The position numbers and the translations under genes were made by a program. Positions 32,562-48,728 of a stretch of DNA of 64,000 nt are shown piece after piece (the stretch's first letter is position 1; every line of letters begins with the position of its first letter). The stretch is taken from positions 1,446-65,445 of the forward strand of contig JARIGK010000001.1 in the NCBI GenBank assembly GCA_029288895.1. Direction: 5' to 3'. A model generated the notes under the pieces. That model saw only the letters and a list, made by a program, of their open reading frames with translations. It made no database searches and was not told the DNA's origin. This DNA is from Candidatus Adlerbacteria bacterium. Its GTDB lineage: Bacteria > Patescibacteriota > Minisyncoccia > Phycocordibacterales > SBAW01.

Positions 32562-32788
32562 ACATTCGCACCCTTTGTTTTCAGGGCTGTACGCACGGCG
32601 CCCAAACTTTCAGCAGAGAGCACTTCGTCCATGGTGAATGTGACGTTATATTCTTTCTCGAGTTCTGCAATAAAAAGCAGATAATTCATGGAGTCCCAAT
32701 CAGGTACGTCCTTGGGTGTGAGGACGTCACTAATATTCTCGCGAGGGATATGCAGCTGTTCGAACACAATATCTTCAAATGATTTCAT
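32558..32788 (-). CDS. acyl/peptidyl carrier protein (DltC/ACP-like)
   Basis: 76 aa with DVPDWDSMNYLLFIAELE, the DSL/DSM phosphopantetheine-attachment motif. Confidence 0.7.
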   Translation of the reverse strand: MKSFEDIVFEQLHIPRENISDVLTPKDVPDWDSMNYLLFIAELEKEYNVTFTMDEVLSAESLGAVRTALKTKGANV

Positions 32789-32794
32789 ACGGTG

Positions 32795-33838: not shown

Positions 33839-33841
33839 ATT

Positions 33842-34171
33842 TTAGTGTGCTACTGCAACTGCTGTGGCGAGTGTGTCAGTGTGAGAAATCGAAATAGAGA
33901 CCAGGTCACTCTTTGTGCCGCCAAACCACACTTCTGGTTTACCACTTTCGTTGCGACGTATCTCGATATCTTTAAATAACGAAAAATCTCCCGTTGCTTT
34001 GCGAACGGCTTCTTTTGCTGCAAACGTACCTGCAAAATGCACTGCTTTGTTTGTGTAGGAATTACAGTACTCCTGTTCGAGTTTTGAAAATGTATTGTCC
34101 ATAAATTGCTGCTGGCCCAAGGCCTGTTCCATGCGTGCAACTTCCACCAAGTCTATACCGACGCCTGCCAT
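33842..34171 (-). CDS. acpS: holo-[acyl-carrier-protein] synthase (4'-phosphopantetheinyl transferase)
   Basis: MAGVGIDLVEVARM...FAAKEAVRKA...ISISHT: classic AcpS motifs in 109 aa. Confidence 0.85.
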   Translation of the reverse strand: MAGVGIDLVEVARMEQALGQQQFMDNTFSKLEQEYCNSYTNKAVHFAGTFAAKEAVRKATGDFSLFKDIEIRRNESGKPEVWFGGTKSDLVSISISHTDTLATAVAVAH

Positions 34172-34189
34172 AGCTGTGCCGCTATGATA

Positions 34190-35182
34190 CTAGTTCGAGG
34201 AGACTTTTAAAAGTTTAGGAAGGAGTGGTGTAATGATGCGTATCATCTCTTGTGTCCGAGCCTCTTTCCCGGCCTCATTTGGATGTTCCGCATCGAGGTA
34301 CATCGAATACGGAAAGGCAAAATCATCCTCTGTCCCAAGTACTGTGCTTGTGCCAATTGCATTTTGTATTTGTTCTATCTGGGCAGCAATAAGTGCGGTG
34401 TTTGCCGCGACGATCTCTTCTGGGGCGCTCGGCGGCATATAGAACACATGAATACCACGTGCCTGTGATTGTTGAACAAATGACTTCATGTCCGCCAACA
34501 CGCCTGAATCTACAGGACTGATAAAACCTGCAGCATCTGCATATGCGGCTTCACGTGTCATATGCTTCTCTCCTGCAAGCTCGGTATTAACATCGCCATA
34601 GTTATTAAATGCCTCGAGCGTGTTCATTCTGTCGGCCGCAGTAAGGGTGCGATGAGGGAAGAAGAGTGCCAGATAAAATTTATATGCTTGTGCCTGCAAC
34701 CATGATGGTGAGTGCCGTAGCATCACAACAATGGTATGAAGCGACAGCACAGCGCGCGCCTGTTCAGGATTTGAATGCAGCATTTCAAGTAGATAAAACC
34801 CATCACCATAGTCTGGCTGCTGCAATACGACGTGTTCGGGGCTAAGTACGACGATATCGCCCGGTCGGAGATTGTCCGTAAGTTCGTGCAGCATAAACTT
34901 CAATCCCAATGCACCATATATACCCATGTTGATGGGATGGAGGCCCGTTTCTTTTTCTATAAGAGGTGAGTCTATACCAAGTGCAACACCCGAGCCTCCA
35001 ACAAAAATAATTCGCGGGCTTTCTGTTGTATCGAGTAAGGCAATTTTTTCTTTAAGACTCGACGCGTAATCGTGTGAGTTGTAACTCACAGCCCACACTC
35101 CTGCACAAAATAAGAGTATAAGTAAAAAACATCCTACAGCTTCTCCTGCGTACACAAGAAATTGTGAGAATTCGCTCCGCAT
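34190..35182 (-). CDS. DltD/AlgJ-like SGNH-fold protein, membrane-anchored, paralogue 1
   Basis: N-terminal TM helix followed by a periplasmic/extracellular domain of about 300 aa with the DltD-like IIFVGGSG block. Confidence 0.5.
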   Translation of the reverse strand: MRSEFSQFLVYAGEAVGCFLLILLFCAGVWAVSYNSHDYASSLKEKIALLDTTESPRIIFVGGSGVALGIDSPLIEKETGLHPINMGIYGALGLKFMLHELTDNLRPGDIVVLSPEHVVLQQPDYGDGFYLLEMLHSNPEQARAVLSLHTIVVMLRHSPSWLQAQAYKFYLALFFPHRTLTAADRMNTLEAFNNYGDVNTELAGEKHMTREAAYADAAGFISPVDSGVLADMKSFVQQSQARGIHVFYMPPSAPEEIVAANTALIAAQIEQIQNAIGTSTVLGTEDDFAFPYSMYLDAEHPNEAGKEARTQEMIRIITPLLPKLLKVSSN

Positions 35183-35187
35183 AGCAA

Positions 35188-36180
35188 CTATTGCTTTTTC
35201 AAGCGTGACATAAGAAGCGGTAGAAGTTTTGCAGTGTATTCTTTTCTACCCTGATCGGTTAAGTGAGAAGATGTATCTAAAAATTCCGTGTCCGGCATTA
35301 CAAATGTGCTTATGGTGCCTACGAGAATGCTTGTGCCGAGCTCATTCTCGACCTGCGTCTCGCGTGCTGCAGCGCGCGTAGGGTTGGCGTCATAGACAGA
35401 CTGTGCGAGGGGAGGCCATACAACAAGAACATGCACGCCACGCGTTTGTAGGTTCTGTATTGTGTGGGCAAGATAGGAGAGTGTTTGTGGATCCGCGCCG
35501 CGGTCGCCTATTTGTCCCGCATCGTTTGTAAGAACCTCTGCCGTTGTTAGATGTGCGTCGCCAGCGACGGTTGATATGGTGTCGCCATAGATATTAAAGT
35601 TATGCTTGCTGTATAACAAAACACTTAGCGGTTTTGGTTGTGCGCAGAACGGTAGCCCAGATCTCAAACAAAGTGCGTTTGCTTTTTCCTGCATCCAATT
35701 GGGAAGGTGTCGCACCATAACAACAATGCCGTGCGGTGTTGCTCCTGTTGGGATGTATTGCGGGTTTGCTTGCAGCGTGTCGAGCAATGCTGCGCCATCG
35801 CCGTAATAGGGTTGCTGGATTACCTGCTCCTCCATTAGATATAGGATAGTGTCGCCAGCATGTAATCTGCTATCTATCGACGCAAACATAAATCGCAATC
35901 CGAGCCCGGCCGAAGAGCCCATGTTGACGGGGTTGTAGTGCGTTTTGTCGTAGATCATTTGAGAGTCGATATCCATTGCGCCGCTTGAACCCGCAACAAC
36001 AATAATGCGTGGATCAGGTGCCGTGGCCATGCGCGTATCTTTTGGGGAAAGATTGTAATACGAATCGTGGTTATAGCTTATGACAGCAAGAAAGAGTACG
36101 AACGAGCATACCAGCATGGCGCATCCGACCATAGAGAATACGAAGCGTGCAAACTGCTTCCGCTCATCTGAGAACATCAT
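35188..36180 (-). CDS. DltD/AlgJ-like SGNH-fold protein, membrane-anchored, paralogue 2
   Basis: Same architecture and recognisable similarity to 34190..35182 (IIVVAGSSGAMDID vs IIFVGGSGVALGID; VHVLVVWPPLAQSVYDANP vs IHVFYMPPSAPEEIVAANT). The start was set at an internal ATG to avoid overlap with the MBOAT gene. Confidence 0.5.
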   Translation of the reverse strand: MMFSDERKQFARFVFSMVGCAMLVCSFVLFLAVISYNHDSYYNLSPKDTRMATAPDPRIIVVAGSSGAMDIDSQMIYDKTHYNPVNMGSSAGLGLRFMFASIDSRLHAGDTILYLMEEQVIQQPYYGDGAALLDTLQANPQYIPTGATPHGIVVMVRHLPNWMQEKANALCLRSGLPFCAQPKPLSVLLYSKHNFNIYGDTISTVAGDAHLTTAEVLTNDAGQIGDRGADPQTLSYLAHTIQNLQTRGVHVLVVWPPLAQSVYDANPTRAAARETQVENELGTSILVGTISTFVMPDTEFLDTSSHLTDQGRKEYTAKLLPLLMSRLKKQ

Positions 36181-36185
36181 GAGAT

Positions 36186-37643
36186 TTAGAATTGGAAGTA
36201 AATAAACTGTACGCCCGAGCTGAATGAGCCCAAAAGTAAAATGGCACAAATAGCCCCTGCGTAGAGAGTCATGCGTGCAAATTCAGGAGTGCGTATGAGA
36301 CGCGGTATAAGTACGCCACGCGCGTGCAATGCTTCGACTAGCTCAAGTGCGACAATGCCCGCTAGGCCAACGATGGTTGGCCATATAGCGCTGTCCATAA
36401 ACACAACGTGGGAGAGTCCTGCGACTGACGTAAGGCTTGCAAAAAACGATGGGATGCCACGGCCAAGGCCTGCAAGTATAGAAAGTGCAATGTTGATTGT
36501 GGGCGAGCGGAAAAATACATAGGTGGTACAGACAAGAGCGAATACGGTGAGTTGTTTTAAGAATCGTGGTGTGTGGATATACGTCGAGCGCCATCTGCCG
36601 GTGAGGCCGCCGACGACGAGATACATACCATGGAGTGCGCCAAATACGACATACGTCCAATTTGCGCCATGCCAAAGGCCGATGAGTGTAAGCGTTACAA
36701 AGAGACTTGTGTAAATCCGGGTTGGTGTGATGCGTTTGCTGCTAAATACCAGTGGTTGGTAGAGATATTCGCGTAACCAACTTGTGAGCGAGATATGCCA
36801 ACGATTCCAAAAATCTGTCATTGATATTGCATGGAATGGGCGATTGAAGTTGATCATCAACTCATAGCCAAAGAATCGTGCAGCGCCCCGCGCAATGTCG
36901 GTGTAGCCAGAAAAGTCGCAATAGATCTGATAGGCAAATAGTGCTGTTGCAAGTACGAGGCTGGGCCCGGGGTACAGAGACGAGTGTGCGTACACGGCGC
37001 TCACCGCCGTGGCTATATTGTCGGCGATGACCAATTTTTTAAAGAAGCCCCAAAGCATGAGACGCGTGCCGCTTTGTGCCATCTCAAGGGAGAATTGGCG
37101 ACCTTCGACAATTTGTTTGAGCAACCCCTGCGGGCGTTCAATGGGGCCTGCAGCCAGCTGCGGGAAGAAGCTCACATATAGCGCGAACTTTCCAAAATGT
37201 TTTACAGGAGTGAATTTGCGACGGTACACCTCTATGGTGTAGCTCATGCTTTGGAATATATGGAAGGAGATGCCAATCGGCAGAATTATATTCAAAAGCG
37301 GGAAATGTGTTGCGATGCCAGCAGCGCCCAGCACTTCGTGGAGCGATGTAAAAAAGAAGTTGAAGTATTTAAAGTAGAACAAAATACCCAGGTTGGCACA
37401 TATACTTGCTGCCAAGTAGAGGCGGCGGCGGTGTTCATTCTGGTCGGCGCCCATAGCGAGGCCGGCGACATAATCTATGCAGGTAATGGCAAACAAAAGC
37501 AATCCGTAGGATGCTTTAAATGCCATATAGAAGATATAGCTTGCGATGAGCAGCGGTACCCAGCGAAAACGCTTGGGAGTAAGCATCCATAACACAAGAA
37601 CAGTTGGGAAGAAGAAGACGAAGCGTACGTCGACAAAGCTCAT
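36186..37643 (-). CDS. MBOAT-family membrane-bound O-acyltransferase (DltB/AlgI-like)
   Basis: Multi-pass membrane protein with MBOAT hallmarks: the WHISLTSWLREYLYQPL region containing the conserved His, and FRSP-type segments. Confidence 0.85.
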   Translation of the reverse strand: MSFVDVRFVFFFPTVLVLWMLTPKRFRWVPLLIASYIFYMAFKASYGLLLFAITCIDYVAGLAMGADQNEHRRRLYLAASICANLGILFYFKYFNFFFTSLHEVLGAAGIATHFPLLNIILPIGISFHIFQSMSYTIEVYRRKFTPVKHFGKFALYVSFFPQLAAGPIERPQGLLKQIVEGRQFSLEMAQSGTRLMLWGFFKKLVIADNIATAVSAVYAHSSLYPGPSLVLATALFAYQIYCDFSGYTDIARGAARFFGYELMINFNRPFHAISMTDFWNRWHISLTSWLREYLYQPLVFSSKRITPTRIYTSLFVTLTLIGLWHGANWTYVVFGALHGMYLVVGGLTGRWRSTYIHTPRFLKQLTVFALVCTTYVFFRSPTINIALSILAGLGRGIPSFFASLTSVAGLSHVVFMDSAIWPTIVGLAGIVALELVEALHARGVLIPRLIRTPEFARMTLYAGAICAILLLGSFSSGVQFIYFQF

Positions 37644-37650
37644 AAGTAGA

Positions 37651-38523
37651 TTACAGAGATAATACTATCCAGTGGGAGGGGAGTAAATCGACGCTATCGA
37701 GTTTTGCGTTCCAATGCTTGGGCGCAATGGTGATGCCGGTTCTGTAATGGTCAGAAAGCCATGAGCCCCACCACCCAAAGGTGCTGTTTGCGAGAATGTG
37801 GTGGTGGCATAGGCGCATGAGTTCAAGATCCTCATAATTTTTCTCCGCGCCTTGCCCTACGAATTCAGTCGGGAATCCAGTCTTAATATGTTCTTGCGCC
37901 CAGGGTAGGTCGTCCGAAAAGACAAAAAATATTGGGTCTTCGACCCGTTCTCGTATTATGGCTATCGCCGCTTCGTAATATTCCATAGACGCTGTACCAA
38001 GTATTTTGTTAAAGCGGGGGACAGAGACGAAGTCGCCGCGGCGTACATGCAACATGACTGGTGCACGTGCAGACCGTATCTTGTGAGCCATATCCTCTGC
38101 GTAAGGGCCAAGTGGTTCTCGCAATGTAAACTCTGTACGCAAAAGAGGTTCTATCTCAAGAAAATATTTTTCTGTCTGCCAATAGCCATCCACCTCGCAC
38201 GGAGCTTCAAGGTCCATCATTTCCGGAGAAAATGTAAATTTCGGCTCAACGACATACTTGGTAGTATCAGCGAAAAAGCGATTTAAGCGCCGCCCTATGC
38301 GCCCGCTGCGTGGTTTGTATCGTACAAACTTCGCTAAATCTTCTTTAGTGGCGATGTGCTCGTCTATATTAAGGTGTCCGAGGCTGTATGAGTGATACTC
38401 ATAATTATCAAATAGCGATATATCGAGTTTTAGCTCGGTATTATTTCGGAGTGCGAGCATGCGCCCAAACGCATATTGGAACATTGTGTTGCCAAGGCCG
38501 CCTTGTAATTTCGTTATAATCAT
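37651..38523 (-). CDS. alpha-1,2-fucosyltransferase (glycosyltransferase family 11)
   Basis: N-terminal IITKLQGGLGNTMFQYAFG is the GT11 hallmark. C-terminal HVRRGDF motif. Confidence 0.85.
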   Translation of the reverse strand: MIITKLQGGLGNTMFQYAFGRMLALRNNTELKLDISLFDNYEYHSYSLGHLNIDEHIATKEDLAKFVRYKPRSGRIGRRLNRFFADTTKYVVEPKFTFSPEMMDLEAPCEVDGYWQTEKYFLEIEPLLRTEFTLREPLGPYAEDMAHKIRSARAPVMLHVRRGDFVSVPRFNKILGTASMEYYEAAIAIIRERVEDPIFFVFSDDLPWAQEHIKTGFPTEFVGQGAEKNYEDLELMRLCHHHILANSTFGWWGSWLSDHYRTGITIAPKHWNAKLDSVDLLPSHWIVLSL

Positions 38524-38598
38524 GGACGTCGTACAGTAATTGTCGCACAGTAGGAATTTTAAATCTATGTGCTATGCTTTCCTCATACTTTAGAAAAT

Positions 38599-39621
38599 AT
38601 GGCTGCAGCAAAGAAAAAAACGGCTCCCAAAAAGCCTGCTCGTACTACTCAGAAAGGCAAGACCGCTATTATTACAGGTGTTACAGGTCAGGATGGTTCG
38701 TATCTCGCGGAACTTTTGCTCGGAAAAGGATACCAAGTGTATGGTGTTATGCGCCGCGTGTCGTCGTTTGGTTCAACAGGGAGAATTGATCATCTCCTAG
38801 ATAACCCTAATTTCCATAAAGTCTACGCAGATCTTGATGATGGCCCTTCTATAGATGCGCTTGTTGCAAAAGTTAAGCCGGACGAATTTTATAACTTGGG
38901 CGCTATGTCGCATGTTCGAGTCTCATTTGAAGTGCCGCGCTATACGATAGCGACGAATACACTTGGCGTACTCACTGCCCTTGAAGCAATCCGTCAGCAT
39001 TCTCCACACACCAAGTTCTACCAGGCCTCAAGTTCAGAAATGTTCGGCGACCCAGGTGTGCCGGTGCCATTTAATGAAAAGACGCCGATGATACCTCAGA
39101 GCCCTTATGGCGTATCAAAACTCGCGTCATATCACCTTGTGCAGCAATATAAAAACGGCTACGGACTATTTGCCACCACGGGCATTCTCTTCAATCACGA
39201 AAGTCCGCGCCGTGGAGAAAACTTTGTTACTAAAAAAATTAGCTTAGCTGTCGCACGCATCAAAAAAGGCCTGCAAGACAAACTTGAACTTGGTAACTTG
39301 GATGCGAAACGTGATTGGGGATGGTCGCCAGAATTCGTCGAGGCGATTTACCAGATTATGCAGCACGACAAACCAGATACTTTCGTCGTTGCAACGGGCG
39401 AGACGCATACGATTCGTGAGTTCGTTGAAGAAGCGTTCAAACATGTAGGACTTAACTGGAAAGACTACGTTACATTCCATGAGAAACTGTTGCGCCCAAA
39501 TGAAGTGCCTAAGCTTTTGGGTGACGCTACAAAAATCCGTAAAACACTCGGGTGGAAACCTGCAAAGAAGTTCAAAGACATAGTCCGGGAAATGGTCGAC
39601 CACGATCTTCAAAATCTATGA
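38599..39621 (+). CDS. gmd: GDP-mannose 4,6-dehydratase with a Lys-rich N-terminal extension
   Basis: KTAIITGVTGQDGSYLAELLLGKGYQVYGVMRRVSSF..., SSSEMFG, YGVSKL catalytic motifs. The start is at 38599 (MAAAKKKTAPKKPARTTQKGK...). Confidence 0.92.
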   Translation: MAAAKKKTAPKKPARTTQKGKTAIITGVTGQDGSYLAELLLGKGYQVYGVMRRVSSFGSTGRIDHLLDNPNFHKVYADLDDGPSIDALVAKVKPDEFYNLGAMSHVRVSFEVPRYTIATNTLGVLTALEAIRQHSPHTKFYQASSSEMFGDPGVPVPFNEKTPMIPQSPYGVSKLASYHLVQQYKNGYGLFATTGILFNHESPRRGENFVTKKISLAVARIKKGLQDKLELGNLDAKRDWGWSPEFVEAIYQIMQHDKPDTFVVATGETHTIREFVEEAFKHVGLNWKDYVTFHEKLLRPNEVPKLLGDATKIRKTLGWKPAKKFKDIVREMVDHDLQNL

Positions 39622-40007
39622 TCCGCGAGTTGGTCGCTGGTGGGCAGGTTGTTGCTAAAGTCTTTGATGGGACACCCACGCAACTGGGTGTCGAAGCTGC
39701 TTCTGATGCGGCAGCGCCTTTGCAGGTATTGCGCATGCAACGCGAGAAAGGATATGTCGTTGCAAAACATGGGCATGCGCAGATGGTTCGAACAACGAAT
39801 GCACGGCAGAAAGCCCTTGTGGTGATTTCGGGTTCGATTGATGTGGTCGTGTGCGATACCAAAGGAGTCGATGGCGATGCGCATACGCTAACACCCGGCC
39901 AATGCCTGTACCTTATGGACGGCGGCTATTCGCTGACGTGCGCCGAAGATACAGTGTTTTATGAATTTAAAAACGGTCCTCATGCCGATGATAAAATAAC
40001 GCTATGA
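39618..40007 (+). CDS. cupin-domain protein (probable nucleotide-sugar epimerase/isomerase)
   Basis: ATGA overlap with the gmd stop. About 129 aa of beta-rich cupin-like sequence (KHGHAQ...GSIDVVVCD...). Confidence 0.5.
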   Translation: MIRELVAGGQVVAKVFDGTPTQLGVEAASDAAAPLQVLRMQREKGYVVAKHGHAQMVRTTNARQKALVVISGSIDVVVCDTKGVDGDAHTLTPGQCLYLMDGGYSLTCAEDTVFYEFKNGPHADDKITL

Positions 40008-41209
40008 ATGTAACTGCATGCCATCTGTGTGGATCGTCTAATTTAGTTAAGACTATTGATCTTGGCTTCCATCCGCTCGCCGATTTCTTTGTGAAAGAAC
40101 ATCAACTTAATGAGATGGAACGTCGCTACCCGCTATCGGTACTTCTGTGTCGAGAGTGCGGGCATTCGATGAACAGTTACGTTGTCCCGGCAGAAGTACG
40201 CTACCAGGAAAATGACTATAGCTACGATTCAAGTAATTCAAAAATAGCCATTCAGCATTTTACTGATATGGCTCGTGAGGTGAGTGAGCGGGCCGGGTCT
40301 GCGCCTGGCGATTTGGTTGTTGATATTGGAAGCAACGTGGGAACGCTTCTTGCCGGGTTTAAAGCGCTTGGGATGAGAGTGCAAGGCGTGGACCCGTCAC
40401 ACAATATTGCCGCCCTTGCAGTCGAGAACGGCATTCCAACCATTAATGATTTTTGGAGCGAGGCGGCGTCAGGAGAAATTCAAAAGCTTGGGAAAGCAAA
40501 AGTTATTACTATGACGAATGCGTTTAACCACGTGAGCGATCTCCATGCGTTTATGAAAGCGCTTGTGCCGGCGCTGCGCGATGACGGGGTGTTTGTTATC
40601 GAACTCCCGTATTACCTCACGCTACTGCTTAAATATCACTTCGATACGATTTATCTCGAGCATGTCTCGTACGTGTCTGTAAAACCTCTTATGGCATTCT
40701 TTGAGAGATTCGGTCTTACTGTCCTCCACGCAGAGGAGAATGACTATATGAGCGGTTCTGTCCGTATCTTTGTAGGCAAAGGGCAGAGCGATGCCACTGT
40801 CGCTGAACTCATAGAAAAAGAAAAAGCCGCAGGTCTCTTTGAAGAACAGACGTATATTGAATTTTGTAAAAAACTCGAAGCGCTTAAAGTGCACCTGCTC
40901 GGGGAGCTTGTTGCTGCACGGAAGGCGGGTGGCAAAATTGTAGCGATTGGTGCCGCTGCAAAAGGGAATACGCTTCTCAATTATTGCGGCATTGATCGGA
41001 CGCTTATCGATTTTGCAACGGATGCATCGCCGCTTAAAGTCGGCAAATATACTCCTGGTTCGCATTTGCCAATAAAGAGCGATGACGCGATAGACGACAC
41101 AGTGACGCACGCGCTTATTTTGGCGTGGAATATCGCTGATTTCTTGATAGGGAAGATTGGCCCAAAGCATCCTCACCTAGACTTCATTACCCCGCATGTT
41201 ATAAAGTGA
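40004..41209 (+). CDS. nucleotide-sugar C-methyltransferase family protein (TylCIII/NovU-like; N-terminal Zn-ribbon plus SAM-MTase)
   Basis: N-terminal CHLCGSS...CRECGH zinc-binding motif, VVDIGSNVGTLL SAM motif, and a C-terminal C-methyltransferase-type domain. Confidence 0.65.
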   Translation: MNVTACHLCGSSNLVKTIDLGFHPLADFFVKEHQLNEMERRYPLSVLLCRECGHSMNSYVVPAEVRYQENDYSYDSSNSKIAIQHFTDMAREVSERAGSAPGDLVVDIGSNVGTLLAGFKALGMRVQGVDPSHNIAALAVENGIPTINDFWSEAASGEIQKLGKAKVITMTNAFNHVSDLHAFMKALVPALRDDGVFVIELPYYLTLLLKYHFDTIYLEHVSYVSVKPLMAFFERFGLTVLHAEENDYMSGSVRIFVGKGQSDATVAELIEKEKAAGLFEEQTYIEFCKKLEALKVHLLGELVAARKAGGKIVAIGAAAKGNTLLNYCGIDRTLIDFATDASPLKVGKYTPGSHLPIKSDDAIDDTVTHALILAWNIADFLIGKIGPKHPHLDFITPHVIK

Positions 41210-41213
41210 CATT

Positions 41214-41681
41214 ATGAAGATAGAAAAGAGAAAGATTAATTTTGAAGATGCTCGTGGCACCATTTCTGATATTTTTGAAAGCCAGCCCAAAGAGCACTGC
41301 ACAATCATTCATTCCAATAAAAATTCTGTCCGTGGCAACCATTACCATAAGCAGACAGTTCAGTGGGACTACATGGTGCAAGGTCGCATGCTCGCCATTC
41401 ATGAGAAGCTTGGCAGCGGTGTAGTTGAAGAACACATCTTGGAACCAGGAGACTTCGTTGAGTGGCCTGCGAACGAAGTGCATGAGTTTATCGCCCTTGA
41501 TGATGTTATTTTCATCACGTTCCACAATGGCCCGCGCGGCGGCGACAATTACGAAAACGATACATTCCGCGTTGATGTCCCGCTCCACGAACGCTTGGGT
41601 AAGAAAATCGAAAACGGTATCTTTGTAGACCCGACTTTGTACGCACGCATCGCCGCACAGCGCGCAGCAGAAGGTAAGTAA
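41214..41681 (+). CDS. cupin-fold sugar 3,4-ketoisomerase-like protein (FdtA/WxcM C-terminal domain family)
   Basis: FEDARGTISDIFE...HYH...H pattern typical of FdtA/QdtA-type ketoisomerases. Confidence 0.55.
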   Translation: MKIEKRKINFEDARGTISDIFESQPKEHCTIIHSNKNSVRGNHYHKQTVQWDYMVQGRMLAIHEKLGSGVVEEHILEPGDFVEWPANEVHEFIALDDVIFITFHNGPRGGDNYENDTFRVDVPLHERLGKKIENGIFVDPTLYARIAAQRAAEGK

Positions 41682-43436
41682 TTATCGCTTTGTAGCGAGG
41701 TAGTCGCCAATAGCGAGCACATCTATCATCCCGCTGGTGAGGGATTTAAGCGCGTCATCTGGCGTGCATACGATCGGTTCTTCATGGACGTTGAAACTTG
41801 TATTGATAACGAGCGGTAAACCCGTGAGTTTTTTATATTCTGTAAGTAGGGCATGGAAACGCGGGTTCGTATCCTGGCGAACAAGCTGCGGGCGGGCGGT
41901 ACCGTCTACGTGTGCAACGGCAGACGCTTTTTCTACCCACTCCTTTTTCATATCAAATGTTATGGTCATAAATTCGGCAGGACGTTTCATTGATGATTTT
42001 TCCATATGAAAAAGTTCTTCCGAAGCTTCATATAAGCAGCTTGGGGCAAAGGGCATAAATTCAGTGCGCTTCATGCGATCGTTGAGCCACTTGTTTATTG
42101 ATGCGTCGGTTGGGTGTGCGAGTACGCTTCTGTTGCCAAGTGCGCGAGGCCCATATTCCATACGGCCTTGGAACCAGCCAACAATCTTTTTTTCTGCAAT
42201 CAGCGCAGCAGTTTCTTGTTCTATAGTGTCTGTTTTTCTATAGACGATTAACGATTCTGCGGAAAGCGCGCGCTCTATTGCTGCATCATCAAATTGGGGC
42301 CCAAGGTACGCATCTTTCATTCGCCGTTCTTGCGGCGTGTATGGATGCGTCCTGTGGTAGGCAAGCATTGCTGCTCCATAGGCATTGCCGCCATCGCCCA
42401 TGTCGGGGAAGACAAACAAACTCTGCACTGACGGCATTTCAGAAATACGCTGGTTGAGTTTGACGTTGGCAAAGATGCCGCCTGCAAGCACAAGGTTCTG
42501 TTTCCCAGTTTTTTGTACCCAATAGGAAATGAATTCGCACGCTCGCTGCTCAAGCGCATACTGGACCGCTGCGGCCATATCTTTTTGCGGGAGATGCGAG
42601 ATGCTGTCGATAATAATACGCCACGGGTTTGAGCTGTAAGGAATTAGTTTCAATTTCATCCGAACGCGATTATAAAATTTCCACAGCGGCGTAGAGTGCG
42701 GATATATAATCGCTCCATCTTCTACAAGGATTTGTTTCTTGAGAATCTCCCATCCTTGTTCTGGGTTTCCCAATGCTGCAAGGCCAGTAATTTTTCCTTC
42801 ATGCCGCGAAACTTTAAATCCGCAAAAACGAGTCATCTCTGAATAGAGCCAGCCCAGCGATGCAGAAGAGGGTACTGTTGTAAGTGTCTCCATCTGGCCC
42901 TTTGAGCAGACCCGCACAGAGCCGGAGCACAAGTCTCCCTCTCCATCGAGCGTTATTGCAAGTACGTCATCCTCGCCGCTTGCATAGTATGCGCTTGCTG
43001 CGTGGCACGCGTGATGGTCGAAAAATGCTATCTCAGCAGAAATGCCTACTGCCAAAAGGAGTGTGCGGATTTTTTTCTCGACATACGCTTTACACTCTTC
43101 GTCGCTTTGCACAGCCTTCCATTCTTTGTCATTAAGATAAAAATCAGGCCCAGGTTTTTCGTTTTGCAAATCGTAATACTGTTTATCTTCCGTAAGCAAA
43201 AATGCCATAGTGCGCGCCCATTCTTTTTTAAATGTACCCATCGAGACGGCAACAACATCAACTTCTTTCGGGTCGACTATCTTTTCTTTGATGATGTAGC
43301 GCAAACTTTCAAACGGAAAGCCAGTGTATGCCTTTATGCGGTTAAGGCGCTCTTCTGCAATAGAAAAAATATGCGAACCGTCGCGGATGACGGTCAGTGT
43401 ACCGTCGTGGGAAGGTGAAATGCCAAGTATGGTCAT
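41682..43436 (-). CDS. carbamoyltransferase (NodU/CmcH/NovN family)
   Basis: N-terminal ILGISPSHDGTLTVIRDGSHIFSIAEERLNRIK and the C-terminal domain typical of O-carbamoyltransferases. Confidence 0.85.
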   Translation of the reverse strand: MTILGISPSHDGTLTVIRDGSHIFSIAEERLNRIKAYTGFPFESLRYIIKEKIVDPKEVDVVAVSMGTFKKEWARTMAFLLTEDKQYYDLQNEKPGPDFYLNDKEWKAVQSDEECKAYVEKKIRTLLLAVGISAEIAFFDHHACHAASAYYASGEDDVLAITLDGEGDLCSGSVRVCSKGQMETLTTVPSSASLGWLYSEMTRFCGFKVSRHEGKITGLAALGNPEQGWEILKKQILVEDGAIIYPHSTPLWKFYNRVRMKLKLIPYSSNPWRIIIDSISHLPQKDMAAAVQYALEQRACEFISYWVQKTGKQNLVLAGGIFANVKLNQRISEMPSVQSLFVFPDMGDGGNAYGAAMLAYHRTHPYTPQERRMKDAYLGPQFDDAAIERALSAESLIVYRKTDTIEQETAALIAEKKIVGWFQGRMEYGPRALGNRSVLAHPTDASINKWLNDRMKRTEFMPFAPSCLYEASEELFHMEKSSMKRPAEFMTITFDMKKEWVEKASAVAHVDGTARPQLVRQDTNPRFHALLTEYKKLTGLPLVINTSFNVHEEPIVCTPDDALKSLTSGMIDVLAIGDYLATKR

Positions 43437-44068
43437 GAGAGTCTCGAAACTATGCTGACTTGTTCGTCCTGTACGCGGATGATGTCGCCGCTAAGGTACT
43501 CACTCTGTTCGCCGACTAGCTGCTGTACTAGTGCTGCGACAACGTCTGGGCTTTGCTTTGTTGCTGCGTCATGGGCGATACGTTCGCGCATTGCTGTGTT
43601 TGTGGGTCCGGGACAGACAGAGAAGAATTTTTTATCGGATTTATTGCGCGCCAGTGCTTGCGCGAGAGAGTTCACTGCGGCTTTTGAAGCCGAGTATGCC
43701 GCAAGCCGCCCGTTTGCATTAATGCCCGCGGTCGAAGAAATAAATATCATGCCGCCTCCGGCAGAAATCTGGTCCATAAACACTTTTGCTATATAGAAGA
43801 GCGAAAGCGTATTTACTTCGAATGTCTTCTGCATATTTTCGGGCGTCTGTTCATCGATGCTCAAGCTGTCATCCACAAAACCGTGGGTGCAGATAAGCCA
43901 GCCGATTGCCTCCTGGTGTGCTATGCGGAGTTTTTCTACAGCAGAGAACGACGAAAGATCTGCATCTTTGTGAGAAATAGGAATGACTCTGCAGCCAGTT
44001 TTTTCTAAGGCATTCACAATCGCTGAACCTATGCCTCCTGAAGCGCCAGTAACCAGAACAGTTTTCAT
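43433..44068 (-). CDS. SDR-family oxidoreductase
   Basis: TVLVTGASGGIGSAIVNAL. YSASKAA catalytic YxxxK. Confidence 0.8.
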   Translation of the reverse strand: MKTVLVTGASGGIGSAIVNALEKTGCRVIPISHKDADLSSFSAVEKLRIAHQEAIGWLICTHGFVDDSLSIDEQTPENMQKTFEVNTLSLFYIAKVFMDQISAGGGMIFISSTAGINANGRLAAYSASKAAVNSLAQALARNKSDKKFFSVCPGPTNTAMRERIAHDAATKQSPDVVAALVQQLVGEQSEYLSGDIIRVQDEQVSIVSRLS

Positions 44069-44077: not shown

Positions 44078-45334
44078 CTACAATGTTTTGTAGATTAGGT
44101 AGAGCGCAAGGGCTGCGCCAGCTTCCGAAAGTATGGTTGCCCACACAGCGCCCCAGAGTCCAAATAAAGGGATAAGGGCGCAGAACAAGACAAATTCTAC
44201 TGCCTGGCTTGAGAGGACGGCTACATATCGCTTCTTTATCTCGCCGTGGGCAATGATGTAGGTGTCTATAATGCCGCGCGGCTGGAACAAGATAATGAGT
44301 GCGAGTACCTGACTCACAAGAATAGATGGCAGATATTTAGGGAAGAGGAATGTAAAGAGGAAGGGAATAAGCACGATATAGCCAATCGTCCCGACTATGG
44401 CCATTACGGTTAATTGTTTGAGGCGCAAAGAGAGGCCTTTTTTTGCTTCTTCCTTTTCTTTTGCAGCAAGTTTAGGAAATAAGATAGACAAAACGTTATC
44501 AAGCAAGTTGCGAGCTTCTTGCACTGGCGTTAGCGCAAGTGCGTAGACCGCTAATGCGGTAGCACCTACGAAATGGAATAGAAGCAATTGATCTATTTGC
44601 CCGGAAATAAGAACGAAAAATCCAAGTACGCTCAGCTGTTTGCCAAACCGGACTGTATCATCAACGTCTGCATGTGATGCGTGGATATCGTATCGGCGCA
44701 AGATAATGAGATATTGGACATAGCTTGCAAGTGCGTTGGAGAAAAAGTATGCGGCTAAAATCCAGATGATGTTGTGTGTAAGGTAGAGCGTTGCGACGAT
44801 GACCGCGACAGGGAAGCCGCTGCGTGCAACCCCTTGCCAAAAGGCTCGCCCAAATTGAGCTTTTGCAAGGATGACAGATTTAGATAATCCATACCCATTC
44901 GACAATATGTTGAACAGGGCAATAAAGATAAATCCGTATCCAAGCGTCGTGTTGTGGTGATAGAAATAGTAGCCGCCAATACCTGCGCTCATAAGAGCGG
45001 CAGGTACGCTCCACCACATCATTGCTTTGACTACGCCAGGGACGACGTGTTGTTTGCCTTGTGCGACAGCGCGCATAAGAGCGCCGCTCATATTGTTGAG
45101 AGTAAATGCGCCAACGACGCTCGCGGCGGCCAGCACGTATTGATAGGTACCGAACGATTCTTGTGAAAGAAGGTTTGCGAAGGCGGTTGTGAGTATAAGA
45201 CCCATCCCAAGCGAAATGATTCTGCCTAAATTGAGCCACACATTACTTACGAAGAAGTACACCATATCCGTTTTGGTGTACTTCTCGCTCCAGCGCAGGA
45301 GGGAATAGAGGCGGGTTTTTGTCCAGGTAAACAT
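44078..45334 (-). CDS. wzx: oligosaccharide flippase (Wzx, MOP superfamily)
   Basis: 12 or more predicted TM helices and a polysaccharide-biosynthesis-protein family pattern. The start is uncertain: 45334 was chosen, but the track ORF extends to 45379. Confidence 0.75.
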   Translation of the reverse strand: MFTWTKTRLYSLLRWSEKYTKTDMVYFFVSNVWLNLGRIISLGMGLILTTAFANLLSQESFGTYQYVLAAASVVGAFTLNNMSGALMRAVAQGKQHVVPGVVKAMMWWSVPAALMSAGIGGYYFYHHNTTLGYGFIFIALFNILSNGYGLSKSVILAKAQFGRAFWQGVARSGFPVAVIVATLYLTHNIIWILAAYFFSNALASYVQYLIILRRYDIHASHADVDDTVRFGKQLSVLGFFVLISGQIDQLLLFHFVGATALAVYALALTPVQEARNLLDNVLSILFPKLAAKEKEEAKKGLSLRLKQLTVMAIVGTIGYIVLIPFLFTFLFPKYLPSILVSQVLALIILFQPRGIIDTYIIAHGEIKKRYVAVLSSQAVEFVLFCALIPLFGLWGAVWATILSEAGAALALYLIYKTL

Positions 45335-45398
45335 GGGGTTACCAGCAGTATAACCGTTCTTGGAGGCAGAATGGCACATCTGTTACAATGCGGCGTAT

Positions 45399-47708
45399 AT
45401 GTCGTATACACGCCTGTTGCGCTCGAGCCTGCTTGTGGGCCTTGCTGCGGTCTTTTTTATACCGTTTGTTATTGCCGATGGTGGCTCGGGTTTTTCGAAC
45501 TCTGGTCTCTCCAACCTCTACATCCCGTTCTTCGGGATGTTCTTCCCATTTATTACAGGTAAGAACTTCGTCTTCCGTATCATCGTCGAAATAGTGTGTG
45601 CGCTCTACGTGTTGCTTGCCTTGCGCGAGCCGAAGTACCGCCCACGCGCATCGCACGTGATGTGGGTGCTTGGCGCGTTCGTATTGTGGATCGGCGTCTC
45701 GACTATCTTCAGTGTGGACCCGGTCAAAAGCTTCTGGAGCAACCTTGAGCGTATGGAAGGGTATGTCACGATGCTGCATCTCTTTGTGTACTTCACTATT
45801 GTTGGTGCTGTTGTCGCAGCAGAAGAGTGGTGGGACAAATTGTTTAAAGTTTCTATCGCATCGTCGGTGTTGATGGGCTTGTATGCAGTGCTCCAACTTT
45901 CGCACATCTTTCCGATTAGCAGCCAGAGCGGTACCCGCGTGGACGGTACCTTCGGCAATGCGATCTACTTGGCAGTGTTTATGCTCTGCAACTTGTTCCT
46001 GACATTGTTTATGTTGGTGCGCCGCCGCCACACTCCGACAAACCAGGCGCTCTATGGCGTAGCGCTCGTACTCCAGTTTGCTGGACTCTTCTTTACTGAA
46101 ACCCGCGGTGCGTTGCTTGGCTTTATCGGCGGCCTTATCATCGCCGCGCTCTATATTGTATGGAAAGGCCGTTCGGCCGAGGTGCGCCCGCTGCGCCGCA
46201 TCGCGATGTGGGGGCTCGGCATTCTCGCAATCCTTATTGTTGCCTTTGTTGCGCTACGCTCGACACCATTTCTCCAGCACAGCAGCACATTAGGCCGCCT
46301 CGCATCTATCTCGCTTAACGACACCACAACTCGTGCACGCCTCTTCTATATATGGCCAATTGCGCTGAAGGGTGCGACAGAAAGTCCGCGCGCAATGATC
46401 GTGGGCCACGGCGAAGAAAACTTTAACTTCGTCTTCAACAAATACTATGTACCGCAGATGTACAACCAAGAGCAGTGGTTTGACCGCGCACACAACCAAT
46501 TCCTCGACTGGTTGATTGCGGGCGGCATCCCAGCCTTCCTTCTCTACGTTGCGCTGTTTGGTGTCATGGTGTGGATCATCATGGGCTCAGCTCTGAGCGT
46601 GCCAGAACAGGCGATACTGCTTGGCCTCCTTGGTGCGTATGCATTCAACAACCTCACAGTGTTCGACGACATCATGAGCTCGATCTACTTCATGCTCGTG
46701 CTCGCGTTTGTACACTCGCTTACCAAAAAGAATCCGCCGCGCTGGATGTTTATGACGCGCCCAGCAAACGATCAGGCACTTGCTATTGCTGCACCGATTG
46801 TTGCTATCGCAGCCGTGTTTGTAATTTGGGTGACGAATGCGCCAGCTATGGCCCGTGCAGAAAATCTCCTCACGGCGCTCACAACGCAGGTGGCGATACC
46901 AAACGGCCAAGGTGGCTTCACGGCACAGCAAAAAGATGCAAAGACGATTTTGGCAAATTACCAAACAGCACTTGGCGCTGGCGTATGGCCAGGTACCGAG
47001 CTTGGACGCCAAGAGGTGACAGAGCAGTTGCTGCAGTATGCGTCGGGCTTGGCATCGTCTAACTCAGTCGACCCGGCAGTCAAACAAGATACGGCAAGCG
47101 CAGCGCAGAATGCTATTACATCGCTGATGCAGCAGCGTCCGCATGACGCACGCCTCGAACTCTTCAACGGTGCATTTCTGGATAGCTTTGGCCAGTATCC
47201 GCAGGCAATAGAAATCTTGAAGCAGGCGCTCGCCGACTCGCCAAACAAACAGCAGATTATGTTTGAAATGGGCGTGTCGTACTTGAATGCAGGGCAGAAT
47301 GCACAGGCGTTGCCAATATTGAAAGCAGCGTTCGATGAAGAGCCAGACTTTGCTGATGCACGCATTCTCTATGCGTCGGGCCTCTACTATACGGGGGACA
47401 AAGCAGATGCAGATGCGTTGCTCACGGCGGGCTTTGGTTCGGTACTCGTTGATGACTCGCGCTTAATGCAGGTCTACGTTAACACGAAGCAGTACGACCG
47501 CGTCGTCGGTATCTGGAAGCTTCGCGTGCAGAAAGACCCGGGCAACGTGCAGTATGTGTTGGGGCTTGCGGCTGCATATTTCACCGCGGGTGACAAAACA
47601 AATGCTATCGCACAGCTTGAGCGTGCAGCACAGCTCGACCCTGCATTGAACTCACAGATTCAAGCCGTCATTACGCAAATCAAAAACGGCACCCTCAAAA
47701 CTCAGTAA
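45399..47708 (+). CDS. O-antigen ligase/polymerase-like (Wzy_C) membrane protein with C-terminal TPR repeats
   Basis: Multi-TM N-terminal half with a large extracytoplasmic loop. The C-terminal part of about 300 aa has TPR-like repeats (QYPQAIEILKQALADSPN..., GDKTNAIAQLERAAQLDP). The start was chosen at MSYTRLL. Confidence 0.7.
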   Translation: MSYTRLLRSSLLVGLAAVFFIPFVIADGGSGFSNSGLSNLYIPFFGMFFPFITGKNFVFRIIVEIVCALYVLLALREPKYRPRASHVMWVLGAFVLWIGVSTIFSVDPVKSFWSNLERMEGYVTMLHLFVYFTIVGAVVAAEEWWDKLFKVSIASSVLMGLYAVLQLSHIFPISSQSGTRVDGTFGNAIYLAVFMLCNLFLTLFMLVRRRHTPTNQALYGVALVLQFAGLFFTETRGALLGFIGGLIIAALYIVWKGRSAEVRPLRRIAMWGLGILAILIVAFVALRSTPFLQHSSTLGRLASISLNDTTTRARLFYIWPIALKGATESPRAMIVGHGEENFNFVFNKYYVPQMYNQEQWFDRAHNQFLDWLIAGGIPAFLLYVALFGVMVWIIMGSALSVPEQAILLGLLGAYAFNNLTVFDDIMSSIYFMLVLAFVHSLTKKNPPRWMFMTRPANDQALAIAAPIVAIAAVFVIWVTNAPAMARAENLLTALTTQVAIPNGQGGFTAQQKDAKTILANYQTALGAGVWPGTELGRQEVTEQLLQYASGLASSNSVDPAVKQDTASAAQNAITSLMQQRPHDARLELFNGAFLDSFGQYPQAIEILKQALADSPNKQQIMFEMGVSYLNAGQNAQALPILKAAFDEEPDFADARILYASGLYYTGDKADADALLTAGFGSVLVDDSRLMQVYVNTKQYDRVVGIWKLRVQKDPGNVQYVLGLAAAYFTAGDKTNAIAQLERAAQLDPALNSQIQAVITQIKNGTLKTQ

Positions 47709-47717: not shown

Positions 47718-48728
47718 ATGAAGGTAGAAGAAAATATCGCGTTGGCTCCGTATACGACATTTCGTATAGGCGGGCCGGCGCGATTTTTCGCTGTCGCAAA
47801 ATCAATCGACGATATACGCGAAGCCGTTCGTTTTGCGAACGAACACTCGTGCGCCGTTTTTATTCTTGGTGGCGGCTCAAACGTACTTGTTGATGATGCA
47901 GGGTTCGATGGGCTTGTACTTAAAGTCGAGCTTCAGGGCGTGGATGTAGACAAGAACGAAAAAGAAGTTCGTATAACAGCGTCGGCGGGTGAGGTGTGGG
48001 ACGAAGTTGTTGCACGTGCAGTCGGGGAAGATGCGTGGGGCATTGAAAATCTTTCGGGTGTGCCGGGCACTGTGGGAGGCGCGGTGGTGCAAAACATTGG
48101 CGCCTATGGCGCAGCGCTTTCGCAAACCCTTACAAGCGTAGAGGTATTTGATACGCGTACGAATGATGTAAAAACACGTTCTGTTGGTGAATGTAAGTTC
48201 GGATATCGTGGAAGTATCTTTAAAGAAGAAGAGGGGAGATATGTGGTGCTTACTGCAACATTCGTACTTTCAAAGAACCCTGCGCCTAATATCTCGTACA
48301 AAGATTTGAAGGCCCGCTTCGGGGATTCGAGCATGGATATACGAGCCATTCGCGATGCGGTGTTGGCGATACGTGCTGCGAAATTCCCTGATTTGCATGT
48401 TGAAGGCACGGCCGGTTCGTTCTTTAAAAACCCTATTATGTCGCGTGCTGATGCGGATGCACTTAAAGCCACGTACCCTGATATGCCGTTATTTGATATG
48501 CCAGAAACGGATGGCGTAAAAGTGCCGCTTGCATGGCTTCTTGATAATGCATTGCATATGAAAGGTGCAACGGTTGGCGGCGCACGTTTGTTTGAAAACC
48601 AAGTGCTCGTGATCGCAGCAAAGAGAAATACGCACGCGCGTGATGTGAAAGAACTTGCATCGAATGTGCAGAAAAAAGTTTTTGAAGAATTAAAAATTGA
48701 AATAGAACCAGAAGTAAAAATTTTATAA
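47718..48728 (+). CDS. murB: UDP-N-acetylenolpyruvoylglucosamine reductase
   Basis: TFRIGGPARFF...ILGGGSNVLV FAD-binding motif and MurB C-terminal domain. Confidence 0.92.
   Translation: MKVEENIALAPYTTFRIGGPARFFAVAKSIDDIREAVRFANEHSCAVFILGGGSNVLVDDAGFDGLVLKVELQGVDVDKNEKEVRITASAGEVWDEVVARAVGEDAWGIENLSGVPGTVGGAVVQNIGAYGAALSQTLTSVEVFDTRTNDVKTRSVGECKFGYRGSIFKEEEGRYVVLTATFVLSKNPAPNISYKDLKARFGDSSMDIRAIRDAVLAIRAAKFPDLHVEGTAGSFFKNPIMSRADADALKATYPDMPLFDMPETDGVKVPLAWLLDNALHMKGATVGGARLFENQVLVIAAKRNTHARDVKELASNVQKKVFEELKIEIEPEVKIL

Follow-up and report, generated by a model that had tools for sequence, protein, structure and literature searches.

A compact group of seven genes (positions 37651–44068) in a 64,000-nucleotide stretch of the genome of a Candidatus Adlerbacteria bacterium (assembly GCA_029288895.1, contig JARIGK010000001.1, positions 1,446 to 65,445; this whole stretch is called the window below) raises the question of what sugar its enzymes make together and where that sugar is placed. 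The genes encode a GDP-mannose 4,6-dehydratase (Gmd), two small cupins (cupin1 and cupin2), a sugar C-methyltransferase, an O-carbamoyltransferase, a short-chain dehydrogenase/reductase (SDR) and a GT11-family glycosyltransferase. The answer favoured here is that the cassette makes, from GDP-mannose, a methyl-branched 6-deoxysugar destined for a surface glycan, through the action of Gmd, the methyltransferase, the cupins and the SDR, with transfer by the GT11 enzyme and a lineage-specific carbamoylation. To this reading, taken jointly with the view that these seven genes form the nucleotide-sugar arm of a surface-glycan locus of the Wzx/Wzy type, carried by a Parcubacteria-type Patescibacteria genome, a probability of roughly 0.55 is assigned.

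The surface chemistry of the Patescibacteria, or Candidate Phyla Radiation (CPR), is almost unknown, though these ultra-small cells depend on contact with a host, and a conserved five-gene cassette supplies a concrete and testable prediction of one of their sugars. A preliminary description of this DNA had listed the same seven genes, and profile searches for each enzyme confirmed all of them in place, together with their domain assignments. Its core idea, a GDP-activated, C-methylated 6-deoxyhexose, is likewise supported by a genuine Gmd, by a methyltransferase of the sugar-modifying type, and by the coupling of the genes for Gmd, cupin1 and the methyltransferase in the window and in many relatives.

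Identity of the dehydratase and the methyltransferase

The product of the Gmd gene (38599–39621, plus strand, 340 residues) matches PF16363 with 404 bits (8e-121) and TIGR01472 with 397 bits, against 124 bits for the dTDP-glucose dehydratase model, 106 for LegB and 76 for the CDP-glucose model. Eleven solved Gmd structures match it at 1e-90 to 1e-109, the match to MUR1 (PDB 1n7g, 3.4e-109) extending over the full length, and the segments SSEMFG, SPYGVSK and NHESPRRGENFVTKK align with identical MUR1 residues that make up the Ser-x-Glu motif, the YxxxK motif and the NHESPRRG GDP-binding loop (NHESPRRGENF is conserved). On these matches the protein is a bona fide GDP-mannose 4,6-dehydratase, as had been proposed, and the conversion of GDP-mannose to GDP-4-keto-6-deoxy-D-mannose is a strong prediction for it. 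The likely start codon is the ATG at 38599; a mechanically called open reading frame (ORF; 38569–39621) opens earlier, at GTG 38569. An N-terminal extension of about 20 residues, rich in Lys, Ala and Pro (MAAAKKKTAPKKPARTTQKGK, 38599–38660), precedes the Rossmann GxxGxxG motif.

The methyltransferase (40004–41209, plus strand, 401 residues) is of the TylC3/TcaB9 type. It carries three domains above cutoff, PF08421 (Methyltransf_13, residues 6–67), PF13489 (Methyltransf_23, 86–242) and PF08484 (Methyltransf_14, 251–382), and its N-terminal zinc ribbon has all four cysteines, Cys6, Cys9, Cys49 and Cys52. It aligns end to end with TylC3 (PDB 4rv9; 1e-76 over residues 3–387, 37% identity) and matches TcaB9 and KijD1 at about 1e-52; its YLEH segment at 217–220 aligns with YHEH of TylC3, so that Y-x-E-H is kept, residues with a reported catalytic role in TcaB9. 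The earlier assignment as a TylCIII-type sugar C-methyltransferase with a zinc ribbon is thus upheld by the three domains and the end-to-end alignment. The alternative that the preliminary description had itself raised, an affinity with O- or N-methyltransferases of non-sugar substrates, finds no support, since the end-to-end match is to sugar 3-C-methyltransferases and the UbiG profile scores 27 bits where its cutoff is 103. Labels of “UbiE/UbiG methylase” attached to homologues in Joint Genome Institute (JGI) annotations were dismissed as generic on the same score. The protein is strongly indicated to be an S-adenosylmethionine (SAM)-dependent C-methyltransferase for NDP-4-keto sugars, and the position methylated is probably C3, all solved homologues being C3 enzymes on dTDP-sugars. 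Of more than 4000 homologues, the top ones (57–72% identity) are all from CPR metagenome-assembled genomes (MAGs), and close homologues in general come almost only from such genomes, with Taylor-, Kaiser-, Magasanik-, Nomura- and Adlerbacteria and Parcubacteria as sources. That the enzyme acts on the Gmd product, and hence on a GDP-sugar, is inferred from translational coupling and synteny.

Gene junctions and conservation of the cassette

The junctions were read straight off the window sequence. Those between Gmd and cupin1 and between cupin1 and the methyltransferase are ATGA overlaps, as the preliminary description had said; that between the methyltransferase and cupin2, which it had also counted as an overlap, is a 4-nt spacer. 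The genes for the carbamoyltransferase (41682–43436) and the SDR (43433–44068), both on the minus strand, converge on the plus-strand set as described earlier, the stops of cupin2 and the carbamoyltransferase abutting with a gap of 0 nt. The SDR and carbamoyltransferase genes are joined by an ATGA overlap, and 9 nt separate the stop of the preceding Wzx gene from the SDR start. Read in this way, the junctions define two tightly coupled converging units: the plus strand carries Gmd-cupin1-methyltransferase-cupin2, the minus strand Wzx-SDR-carbamoyltransferase. The 75-nt region between the divergent GT11 and Gmd genes (38524–38598) presumably holds a promoter shared by both; no sigma-70 consensus match was found in it, in a scan that is uninformative for this phylum. 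Over 37.4–45.6 kb, sigma-70 promoter matches lie below and intrinsic terminators near the expectation from shuffled sequence, and no operon boundaries can be drawn from them.

The extent to which this arrangement is shared was assessed by searching 27 fetched loci (given L numbers here) with the window proteins by tblastn, with further look-ups of L028, L108, L109, L110 and L111. A genome scan by short exact peptide patterns retrieves close relatives only, all of them CPR, and carries no evidence on whether the Gmd-linked cassette occurs elsewhere. Gmd, cupin1, the methyltransferase and cupin2 are colinear in about 20 independent loci at protein identities of 32–78% (Gmd 71–78%, cupin1 32–43%, methyltransferase 66–72%, cupin2 47–62%), which belong to Parcu-, Kaiser-, Magasanik- and Nomurabacteria and other CPR MAGs. 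The 4-nt cupin1/methyltransferase overlap is kept in at least 9 other loci, and Wzx homologues flank the cassette in many. The arrangement is far beyond chance and is conserved, not a one-off. The preliminary description had considered so heavily tailored a sugar unusual on a bacterial surface; in fact the cassette occurs commonly in Patescibacteria, and the surface-glycan loci of Coxiella, Sinorhizobium and Legionella contain genes for C-methyltransferases.

Part of the cassette also travels on its own. The methyltransferase, cupin2 and a short SDR co-occur in loci that lack Gmd and cupin1, with cupin2 always after the methyltransferase, and the methyltransferase-cupin2 pair is present in an Alphaproteobacteria MAG (GCA_015229215.1; L110, 6730–8387) and in another large contig (L111, 6744–8381). 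In the former it stands beside a 247-residue adh_short gene, several glycosyltransferases and B12-binding radical SAM enzymes. Its occurrence, with or without the SDR, apart from Gmd and in an Alphaproteobacteria MAG marks it as a portable module, to which cupin1 is a Gmd-specific addition, and the pair looks like a widespread uncharacterized two-gene unit. In one set of loci (Group B: L019–L024 and L026) and in L028, the methyltransferase, cupin2 and short SDR lie beside a truncated gene resembling UDP-glucose dehydrogenase (UGDH; 262–318 residues, without the C-terminal domain) and an extended SDR that is ambiguous between a 4,6-dehydratase and a UDP-4-keto-pentose synthase (for example L019, 7511–11610), and no Gmd or cupin1 was found within 10 kb. 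The Group B set may represent a second pathway, to a different C-methyl-branched sugar. The proposal that the UGDH-like gene and the extended SDR form an alternative front end that replaces Gmd and cupin1 was weakened by L014, which carries both sets.

The two cupins and the short reductase

Cupin2 (41214–41681, plus strand, 155 residues) matches Cupin_2 at 4e-7 and PF14667 with 26.3 bits, under the cutoff of 28.7, and a PF14667 match is precomputed for most of its homologues. Across a 25-member alignment H43, H45, Q50, E88 and H90 are invariant and a GPRGG...E.DT tail is conserved; H43, H45, Q50 and H90 stand at the canonical metal positions of cupins and constitute a putative metal site. The family profile has as its top match in the PDB the metal-cupin motif of oxalate decarboxylases, and among sugar enzymes it ranks the CapF cupin at 3.8e-6, archaeal RmlC-like proteins at 3e-5, FdtD at 1.5e-3, QdtA at 0.02 and FdtA at 0.077. 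The match on Cap5F spans residues of about 257–352, and by offset H45 falls near the CapF zinc ligand His290, an approximate mapping. The AlphaFold (AF2) model of cupin2, with a predicted local distance difference test score (pLDDT) of 93.5, is matched by Foldseek at about 1e-7 to an RmlC homologue, CapF, FdtA, QdtA, FdtD, StrM, ChmJ and the GDP-heptose 3,5-epimerases Cj1430 and MlghB. The CapF match has an E value of 7e-8 and a TMq of 0.55, and those to FdtA, QdtA and FdtD have template modelling (TM) scores of 0.62–0.73 and a root-mean-square deviation (rmsd) of about 2.2 Å. Since nearly all of these matches are NDP-4-ketosugar cupins, cupin2 can be placed among the nucleotide-sugar cupins, and it is likely to be an epimerase; the fold search separates no epimerase class from an isomerase class.

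The preliminary description had called cupin2 an FdtA-like 3,4-ketoisomerase. The invariant H43-x-H45 pair invites comparison with the catalytic pair H49/H51 of FdtA, and the folds superpose on the FdtA type at TM 0.64/0.73. The assignment is not specifically supported: neither cupin matches PF05523 at E ≤ 0.01, that family is found in 1 of 120 cupin2 homologues among the matches listed, the profile ranks CapF and the RmlC-like proteins well above FdtD, QdtA and FdtA, and the fold search is equal across the classes. A separate observation concerns nomenclature. PF14667 bears the name “Polysacc_synt_C” (polysaccharide biosynthesis C-terminal domain), but its matches fall consistently on the soluble cupin2 family, and it has no match in the Wzx protein of the window; as the profile of the family it does match also matches the CapF cupin, the name is misleading for annotation.

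Cupin1 is more divergent. It had been given a start at GTG 39552; the ATG at 39618 fits better, yielding a protein of 129 residues (39618–40007, plus strand) where homologues have 127–133. It has zero Pfam matches, reaches WbuC-cupin TIGR04366 at 1e-5, below cutoff, and gives nothing meaningful in the PDB by sequence or by profile. Profile-profile comparison (hhalign) matches it to the cupin2 family (92.8%, E 3.9e-7), and the HxH pair H51 and H53 is invariant in 17 homologues. Foldseek searches with its model give weak matches to FdtD and the ketoisomerases WlaRA/B (best 8e-3), which weakly support its being a cupin and point to no function. By tblastn over the fetched loci, cupin1 is present in every Gmd-bearing locus and in no Gmd-less one. 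Judged by these comparisons it is a distant paralogue of cupin2 and a Gmd-specific companion, and a role as epimerase or isomerase on the product of Gmd is possible.

The short SDR (43433–44068, minus strand, 211 residues) matches adh_short at 7.6e-27, shows the motifs TGASGGIG and YSASK in its translation, and has generic SDR matches only in the PDB and NCBIfam. Homologues with 40–58% identity directly adjoin the methyltransferase in L001, L007, L014, L019–L024, L026 and L028, and L108 and L109 have short SDR genes at the same position as in the window. The SDR is therefore a conserved partner of the methyltransferase and cupin2, and is likely to be an NAD(P)H-dependent 4-ketoreductase and not an accessory of the carbamoyltransferase; its inferred role is the reduction of the C4 keto group. 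The preliminary description had listed the SDR together with the carbamoyltransferase and had overlooked this partnership. A further proposal, that cupin2 and the SDR together form a split CapF, was rejected, since only the cupin half is related and the SDR is generic, with no CapF match at E ≤ 1e-10 in the PDB search; the functional analogy with CapF is kept.

Predicted transfer and carbamoylation of the product

The GT11 gene (37651–38523, minus strand, 290 residues), which diverges from Gmd and flanks the set as reported, matches PF01531 with 108.7 bits (cutoff 23.9; 4e-31) over model positions 127–280 of 298. Its translation contains HVRRGD, FSDD..W and NSTFGWWG, which are motifs of the GT11 family; a sequence search of the PDB gave no solved homologue. 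Besides the window itself, L001, L007, L012, L014, L026, L028, L108 and L109 have a GT11 gene that adjoins the cassette or lies close to it. In the first six of these numbered loci the homologues have 33–68% identity, in L108 and L109 GT11-domain genes directly adjoin Gmd, and of the eight loci, counting the window, with GT11 within 10 kb of the cassette, six have it directly adjacent. GT11 is accordingly a plausible candidate for the transfer of the cassette product. Enzymes of this family normally use GDP-beta-L-fucose, a donor preference that by analogy fits an L-configured GDP-6-deoxyhexose, and as the scanned window ORFs yielded no Fcl/GMER gene (the sole GDPFucSynFcl signal being 22.6 bits on Gmd itself), the cassette product would be a likelier GT11 donor than fucose.

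The carbamoyltransferase (41682–43436, minus strand, 584 residues) has both domains of its family, the Kae1-like Carbam_trans_N (PF02543, 155 bits) and the YrdC-like Carbam_trans_C (PF16861, 216 bits). Its best PDB matches are NovN (9s2t, 1.2e-77), GdmN (4e-69) and TobZ (2e-65), and its HHxxHAxS motif aligns with that of NovN. Of the NodU/CmcH-type label given earlier, membership of the two-domain O-carbamoyltransferase family stands; orthology with NodU does not, the NodU equivalog NF041651 scoring 156 bits against a cutoff of 1000. The enzyme is a lineage-specific addition to the cassette, and carbamoylation of the cassette sugar is plausible. Being cytoplasmic and in need of ATP and carbamoyl phosphate, it would act on the GDP-sugar or on a lipid-linked unit before the Wzx flip.

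Proposed pathway and alternative explanations

In the proposed pathway, Gmd would first convert GDP-mannose to GDP-4-keto-6-deoxymannose, and the methyltransferase would then use SAM to methylate a carbon adjoining the 4-keto group, most likely C3. Cupin2 would epimerize the 4-keto intermediate; the simplest position is C5, by analogy with TylK, which follows TylC3 in mycarose synthesis, and the short SDR would reduce the 4-keto group. Cupin1 might adapt the mannose-derived intermediate, for example by epimerization at C3 before methylation, which is the weakest link in the scheme. The expected product is a GDP-6-deoxy-C-methylhexose, plausibly an L sugar, which GT11 would transfer to a lipid-linked repeat unit; in the subclade of the window the NovN/TobZ-type enzyme would O-carbamoylate the sugar with carbamoyl phosphate and ATP before the flip by Wzx.

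A number of observations weigh against this pathway. For the substrate, the characterized methyltransferase homologues all use dTDP-sugars, and relatives occur without a neighbouring Gmd (the Group B loci and L028), so that GDP specificity is a prediction. Gmd itself falls 18 bits under the equivalog cutoff of 415 for TIGR01472, and no ManB or ManC was found in a non-exhaustive scan of the window ORFs. For the later steps, epimerases and 3,4-ketoisomerases are not separated by Foldseek for either cupin (for cupin2, RmlC, CapF and FdtA are equal). In cupin1 the RQK and GGYS sequences shared by the window with its three closest relatives replace QPQE and GGHE of the other 13 members (L007, GGWG), so that this subclade has lost two conserved motif residues, which are two of the four canonical cupin metal positions; the AF2 model of cupin1, made from four sequences, is also poor (pLDDT 66). 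The candidate reductase, which has no CapF match at the threshold given above, belongs to the generic classical SDRs, whereas GDP-4-keto sugars are normally reduced by extended SDRs (Rmd, Fcl, Tld). The carbamoyltransferase has characterized relatives whose acceptors are glycosylated small molecules or oligosaccharides and not NDP-sugars. No biochemistry of a GDP-sugar C-methyltransferase or of the cassette was found in the literature, in a coverage without most subscription journals, which makes this weak evidence.

These points bear on three alternative explanations. The methyltransferase, cupin2 and the SDR might act on a sugar that is not GDP-linked, while Gmd and cupin1 feed a separate GDP-deoxyhexose of the rhamnose, talose or fucose type to GT11. 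Such a division of labour is suggested by the module without Gmd or cupin1 in the Group B loci and L028, by the dTDP-sugar specificity of every solved homologue of the methyltransferase, and by the homologous C-methyltransferases of Legionella and Sinorhizobium, which sit in CDP-glucose pathways and likewise count against a GDP substrate. It is nevertheless unlikely, given the ATGA coupling of Gmd, cupin1 and the methyltransferase in the window and the cupin1/methyltransferase overlap elsewhere. Moreover, no second NDP-sugar 4,6-dehydratase adjoins the methyltransferase in the window, where the other extended SDR (19548–20570, 340 residues), ambiguous between GalE and a dehydratase, lies about 20 kb away; the window ORFs scanned include no reductase of the Rmd or Fcl type by which a separate GDP-deoxyhexose could be completed from the Gmd product; and L014, by holding both sets, indicates that the UGDH-like pair need not be an alternative front end. 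Slightly less probable again is that one of the cupins is a 3,4-ketoisomerase, so that the pathway passes through a 3-keto intermediate to a product of a different class, with another position of methylation or reduction or as a 3-keto/4-hydroxy sugar. The superposition of cupin2 on FdtA, QdtA and FdtD would fit this, as would its R-G-x-H-x-H-K...Q stretch, which resembles the catalytic His pair of FdtA, and the best, if weak, matches of cupin1 to FdtD and WlaRA/B. The lack of a PF05523 match in cupin2 counts the other way, and in the cupin2 profile search the ketoisomerases stand two to four orders of magnitude below the CapF cupin and the RmlC-like epimerases; a TylC3-type enzyme requires a 4-keto group to activate C3 or C5, and known 3,4-ketoisomerase pathways go on with a 3-aminotransferase or 3-reductase, whereas the cassette has no aminotransferase.

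The strongest of the alternatives leaves the branched sugar as proposed and assigns the carbamoyltransferase to another residue of the repeat unit or to another acceptor. This is a real though minority possibility. The enzyme is found in only four loci (the window, L108, L007 and L028) and is absent from about 80% of cassette loci. The four form one clade in the neighbour-joining tree of the methyltransferase, so they may count as a single acquisition; homologues at 50–55% identity, on marine contigs, have no methyltransferase nearby; and the locus holds other, independent decoration systems, namely an MBOAT/FkbH/ACP block and an FkbM methyltransferase. Against this, the gene stays beside the methyltransferase, cupin2 and SDR through three gene arrangements (window and L108; L007; L028), and in a metagenome scan both full-length homologues with at least 60% identity (L007 and L028), together with the syntenic L108, lie beside that set. 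It also overlaps the pathway SDR through ATGA, and NovN, its best PDB match, carbamoylates noviose, itself a C-methyl-branched deoxysugar. In L109 a 259-residue class-I methyltransferase (11048–11827) lies between the short SDR and the C-methyltransferase, with no carbamoyltransferase within the contig, which hints that O-methylation and O-carbamoylation are interchangeable decorations of the same sugar across lineages.

If the favoured GDP-mannose pathway is extended to the phylum, Patescibacteria would possess a widespread, undescribed route to a GDP-linked, C-methyl-branched 6-deoxy-L-hexose. This route would run through two small metal-type cupins and a classical SDR in place of an Fcl/Rmd-type enzyme and contain the first GDP-sugar C-methyltransferase. 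Its product would in some lineages be O-carbamoylated, or O-methylated or acylated in sister lineages, and be placed by GT11 on the surface, where it could influence how these episymbionts attach to their hosts or are recognized by phages. This extension is speculative and is held with considerably less confidence than the pathway itself.

The surrounding glycan locus

The seven genes lie in a glycan locus of approximately 30 kb (about 16.5–47.7 kb) with many GT1, GT2 and GT4 genes and the FkbM methyltransferase. Next to the SDR is a Wzx-type flippase of 433 residues (44078–45379, minus strand; PF01943 at 9e-10, PF13440), the first gene of the minus-strand unit, followed by a membrane protein of 782 residues (45360–47708, plus strand) that combines Wzy_C, as in O-antigen ligases and polymerases (PF04932, 4.6e-18), with tetratricopeptide repeat (TPR) families. 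This protein closes the glycan locus, and MurB (47718–48728) and SecA (49074–51539) come after it. The order Wzy_C-TPR, MurB, SecA is kept in the Taylorbacteria contig L001 and in the Logan contig L108, and these two share with the window the longer order AsnB...Gmd...Wzx, Wzy_C-TPR, MurB, SecA. This synteny, with the CPR origin of the close methyltransferase homologues, places the window in a Parcubacteria-type Patescibacteria genome. Wzy_C domains are present in O-oligosaccharyltransferases too, so the glycan could be attached to protein and not polymerized.

Directly upstream of GT11 lies a block for acyl carrier protein (ACP)-dependent acyl decoration (29743–37643, minus strand). It comprises an MBOAT/DltB-like protein (TIGR04091, 155 bits, below cutoff), an FkbH-domain protein (318 bits, above cutoff), two membrane-anchored paralogues that are 34% identical, have no Pfam match and are possibly DltD/AlgX-like, a phosphopantetheinyl transferase (PPTase), an ACP-like ORF of 76 residues with a DSM motif (32558–32788), MaoC, a second short SDR and an AsnB-type amidotransferase. 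The block is beside the cassette in L108 and L109 too, and an MBOAT gene follows the carbamoyltransferase in L028. This suggests that the same glycan receives an FkbH-derived acyl group extracellularly. At 13274–16469, shortly before the glycan locus on its upstream side, are an ATPase of 600 residues with a TrwB/TraG domain, resembling type IV secretion system (T4SS) coupling proteins, and a lamin-tail/PKD protein of 472 residues, for which surface or DNA-uptake functions are possible.

Significance and comparison with known systems

The interest of the cassette lies in its conservation across a poorly understood phylum and in the fact that it can be tested directly; it offers no conceptual surprise, and if the product proves to be an ordinary deoxyhexose variant, the locus is an example of routine O-antigen-style diversity. 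The cassette is short and its enzymes are soluble, so that it could be rebuilt in Escherichia coli or in vitro with no need to grow the organism itself. If the pathway is correct, it would provide the first demonstrated GDP-sugar C-methyltransferase and an alternative, built from small cupins and a classical SDR, to finishing enzymes of the GMER type.

The logic of the proposed pathway is that of the late steps of dTDP-L-mycarose formation, in which TylC3 (3-C-methyltransferase), TylK (a cupin 5-epimerase) and TylC2 (4-ketoreductase) act in this order. Both combine a C-methyltransferase, a cupin epimerase and a ketoreductase on an NDP-4-keto-6-deoxyhexose, and TylC3 is the best solved homologue of the window methyltransferase. 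The Tyl enzymes, however, act on a dTDP-linked, 2,6-dideoxy substrate for an antibiotic, whereas the window has a Gmd, and hence GDP, front end and a Wzx/Wzy surface glycan as the predicted destination of the sugar; its cupin is CapF-C/PF14667-like and not a typical RmlC/TylK, and its reductase is a classical SDR of 211 residues. Noviose tailoring in novobiocin biosynthesis also pairs a C-methyltransferase of the same Pfam architecture (NovU) with a carbamoyltransferase (NovN, acting at the 3-O position). The target of NovU is C5 of a dTDP-sugar, and NovN works on the sugar once it has been transferred to the aminocoumarin, in contrast to the predicted GDP pathway and polymer-type surface glycan of the window. 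With FdtA, QdtA and FdtD, cupin2 shares its small size, the HxH pair and a fold similarity with TM of up to 0.73; it differs in lacking PF05523, in its profile values of 1.5e-3 to 0.08 and in having no aminotransferase downstream, and FdtA-type enzymes are not known to use the full four-position metal motif that cupin2 keeps.

In CapF (Cap5F) of Staphylococcus aureus, a zinc cupin domain epimerizes a 4-keto intermediate, which an SDR domain then reduces (PMC5393024). The profile match at 3.8e-6, the fold match, the invariant H, H, Q, H metal positions and the logic of epimerization followed by reduction on a 4-keto-6-deoxy nucleotide sugar all connect cupin2 with this enzyme. In the window, by contrast, the cupin and the SDR are separate proteins and the SDR is not detectably CapF-like, and the substrate of CapF is a UDP-2-acetamido sugar that undergoes no methylation.

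The closest precedent is the O-antigen of Coxiella burnetii, which contains virenose (6-deoxy-3-C-methylgulose), with a proposed GDP route through CBU_0689 (Gmd), CBU_0691 (a TylCIII-like methyltransferase) and CBU_0688 (GMER) (PMC3539893, PMC3204966); this GDP-virenose route is itself hypothetical and unproven. In both systems Gmd and a TylCIII-type methyltransferase share one surface-glycan locus and a GDP-linked 3-C-methyl-6-deoxyhexose is predicted, in each case in silico. By its published description the Coxiella pathway would finish with GMER/Fcl, a bifunctional extended SDR, an enzyme type not met among the window ORFs scanned, where two small cupins and a classical short SDR are found instead. 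To the elements of the Coxiella proposal the window adds the translational coupling of Gmd with the methyltransferase, a GT11 glycosyltransferase and a carbamoyltransferase, and a demonstration of the reaction predicted here would also inform the proposed pathway to virenose.

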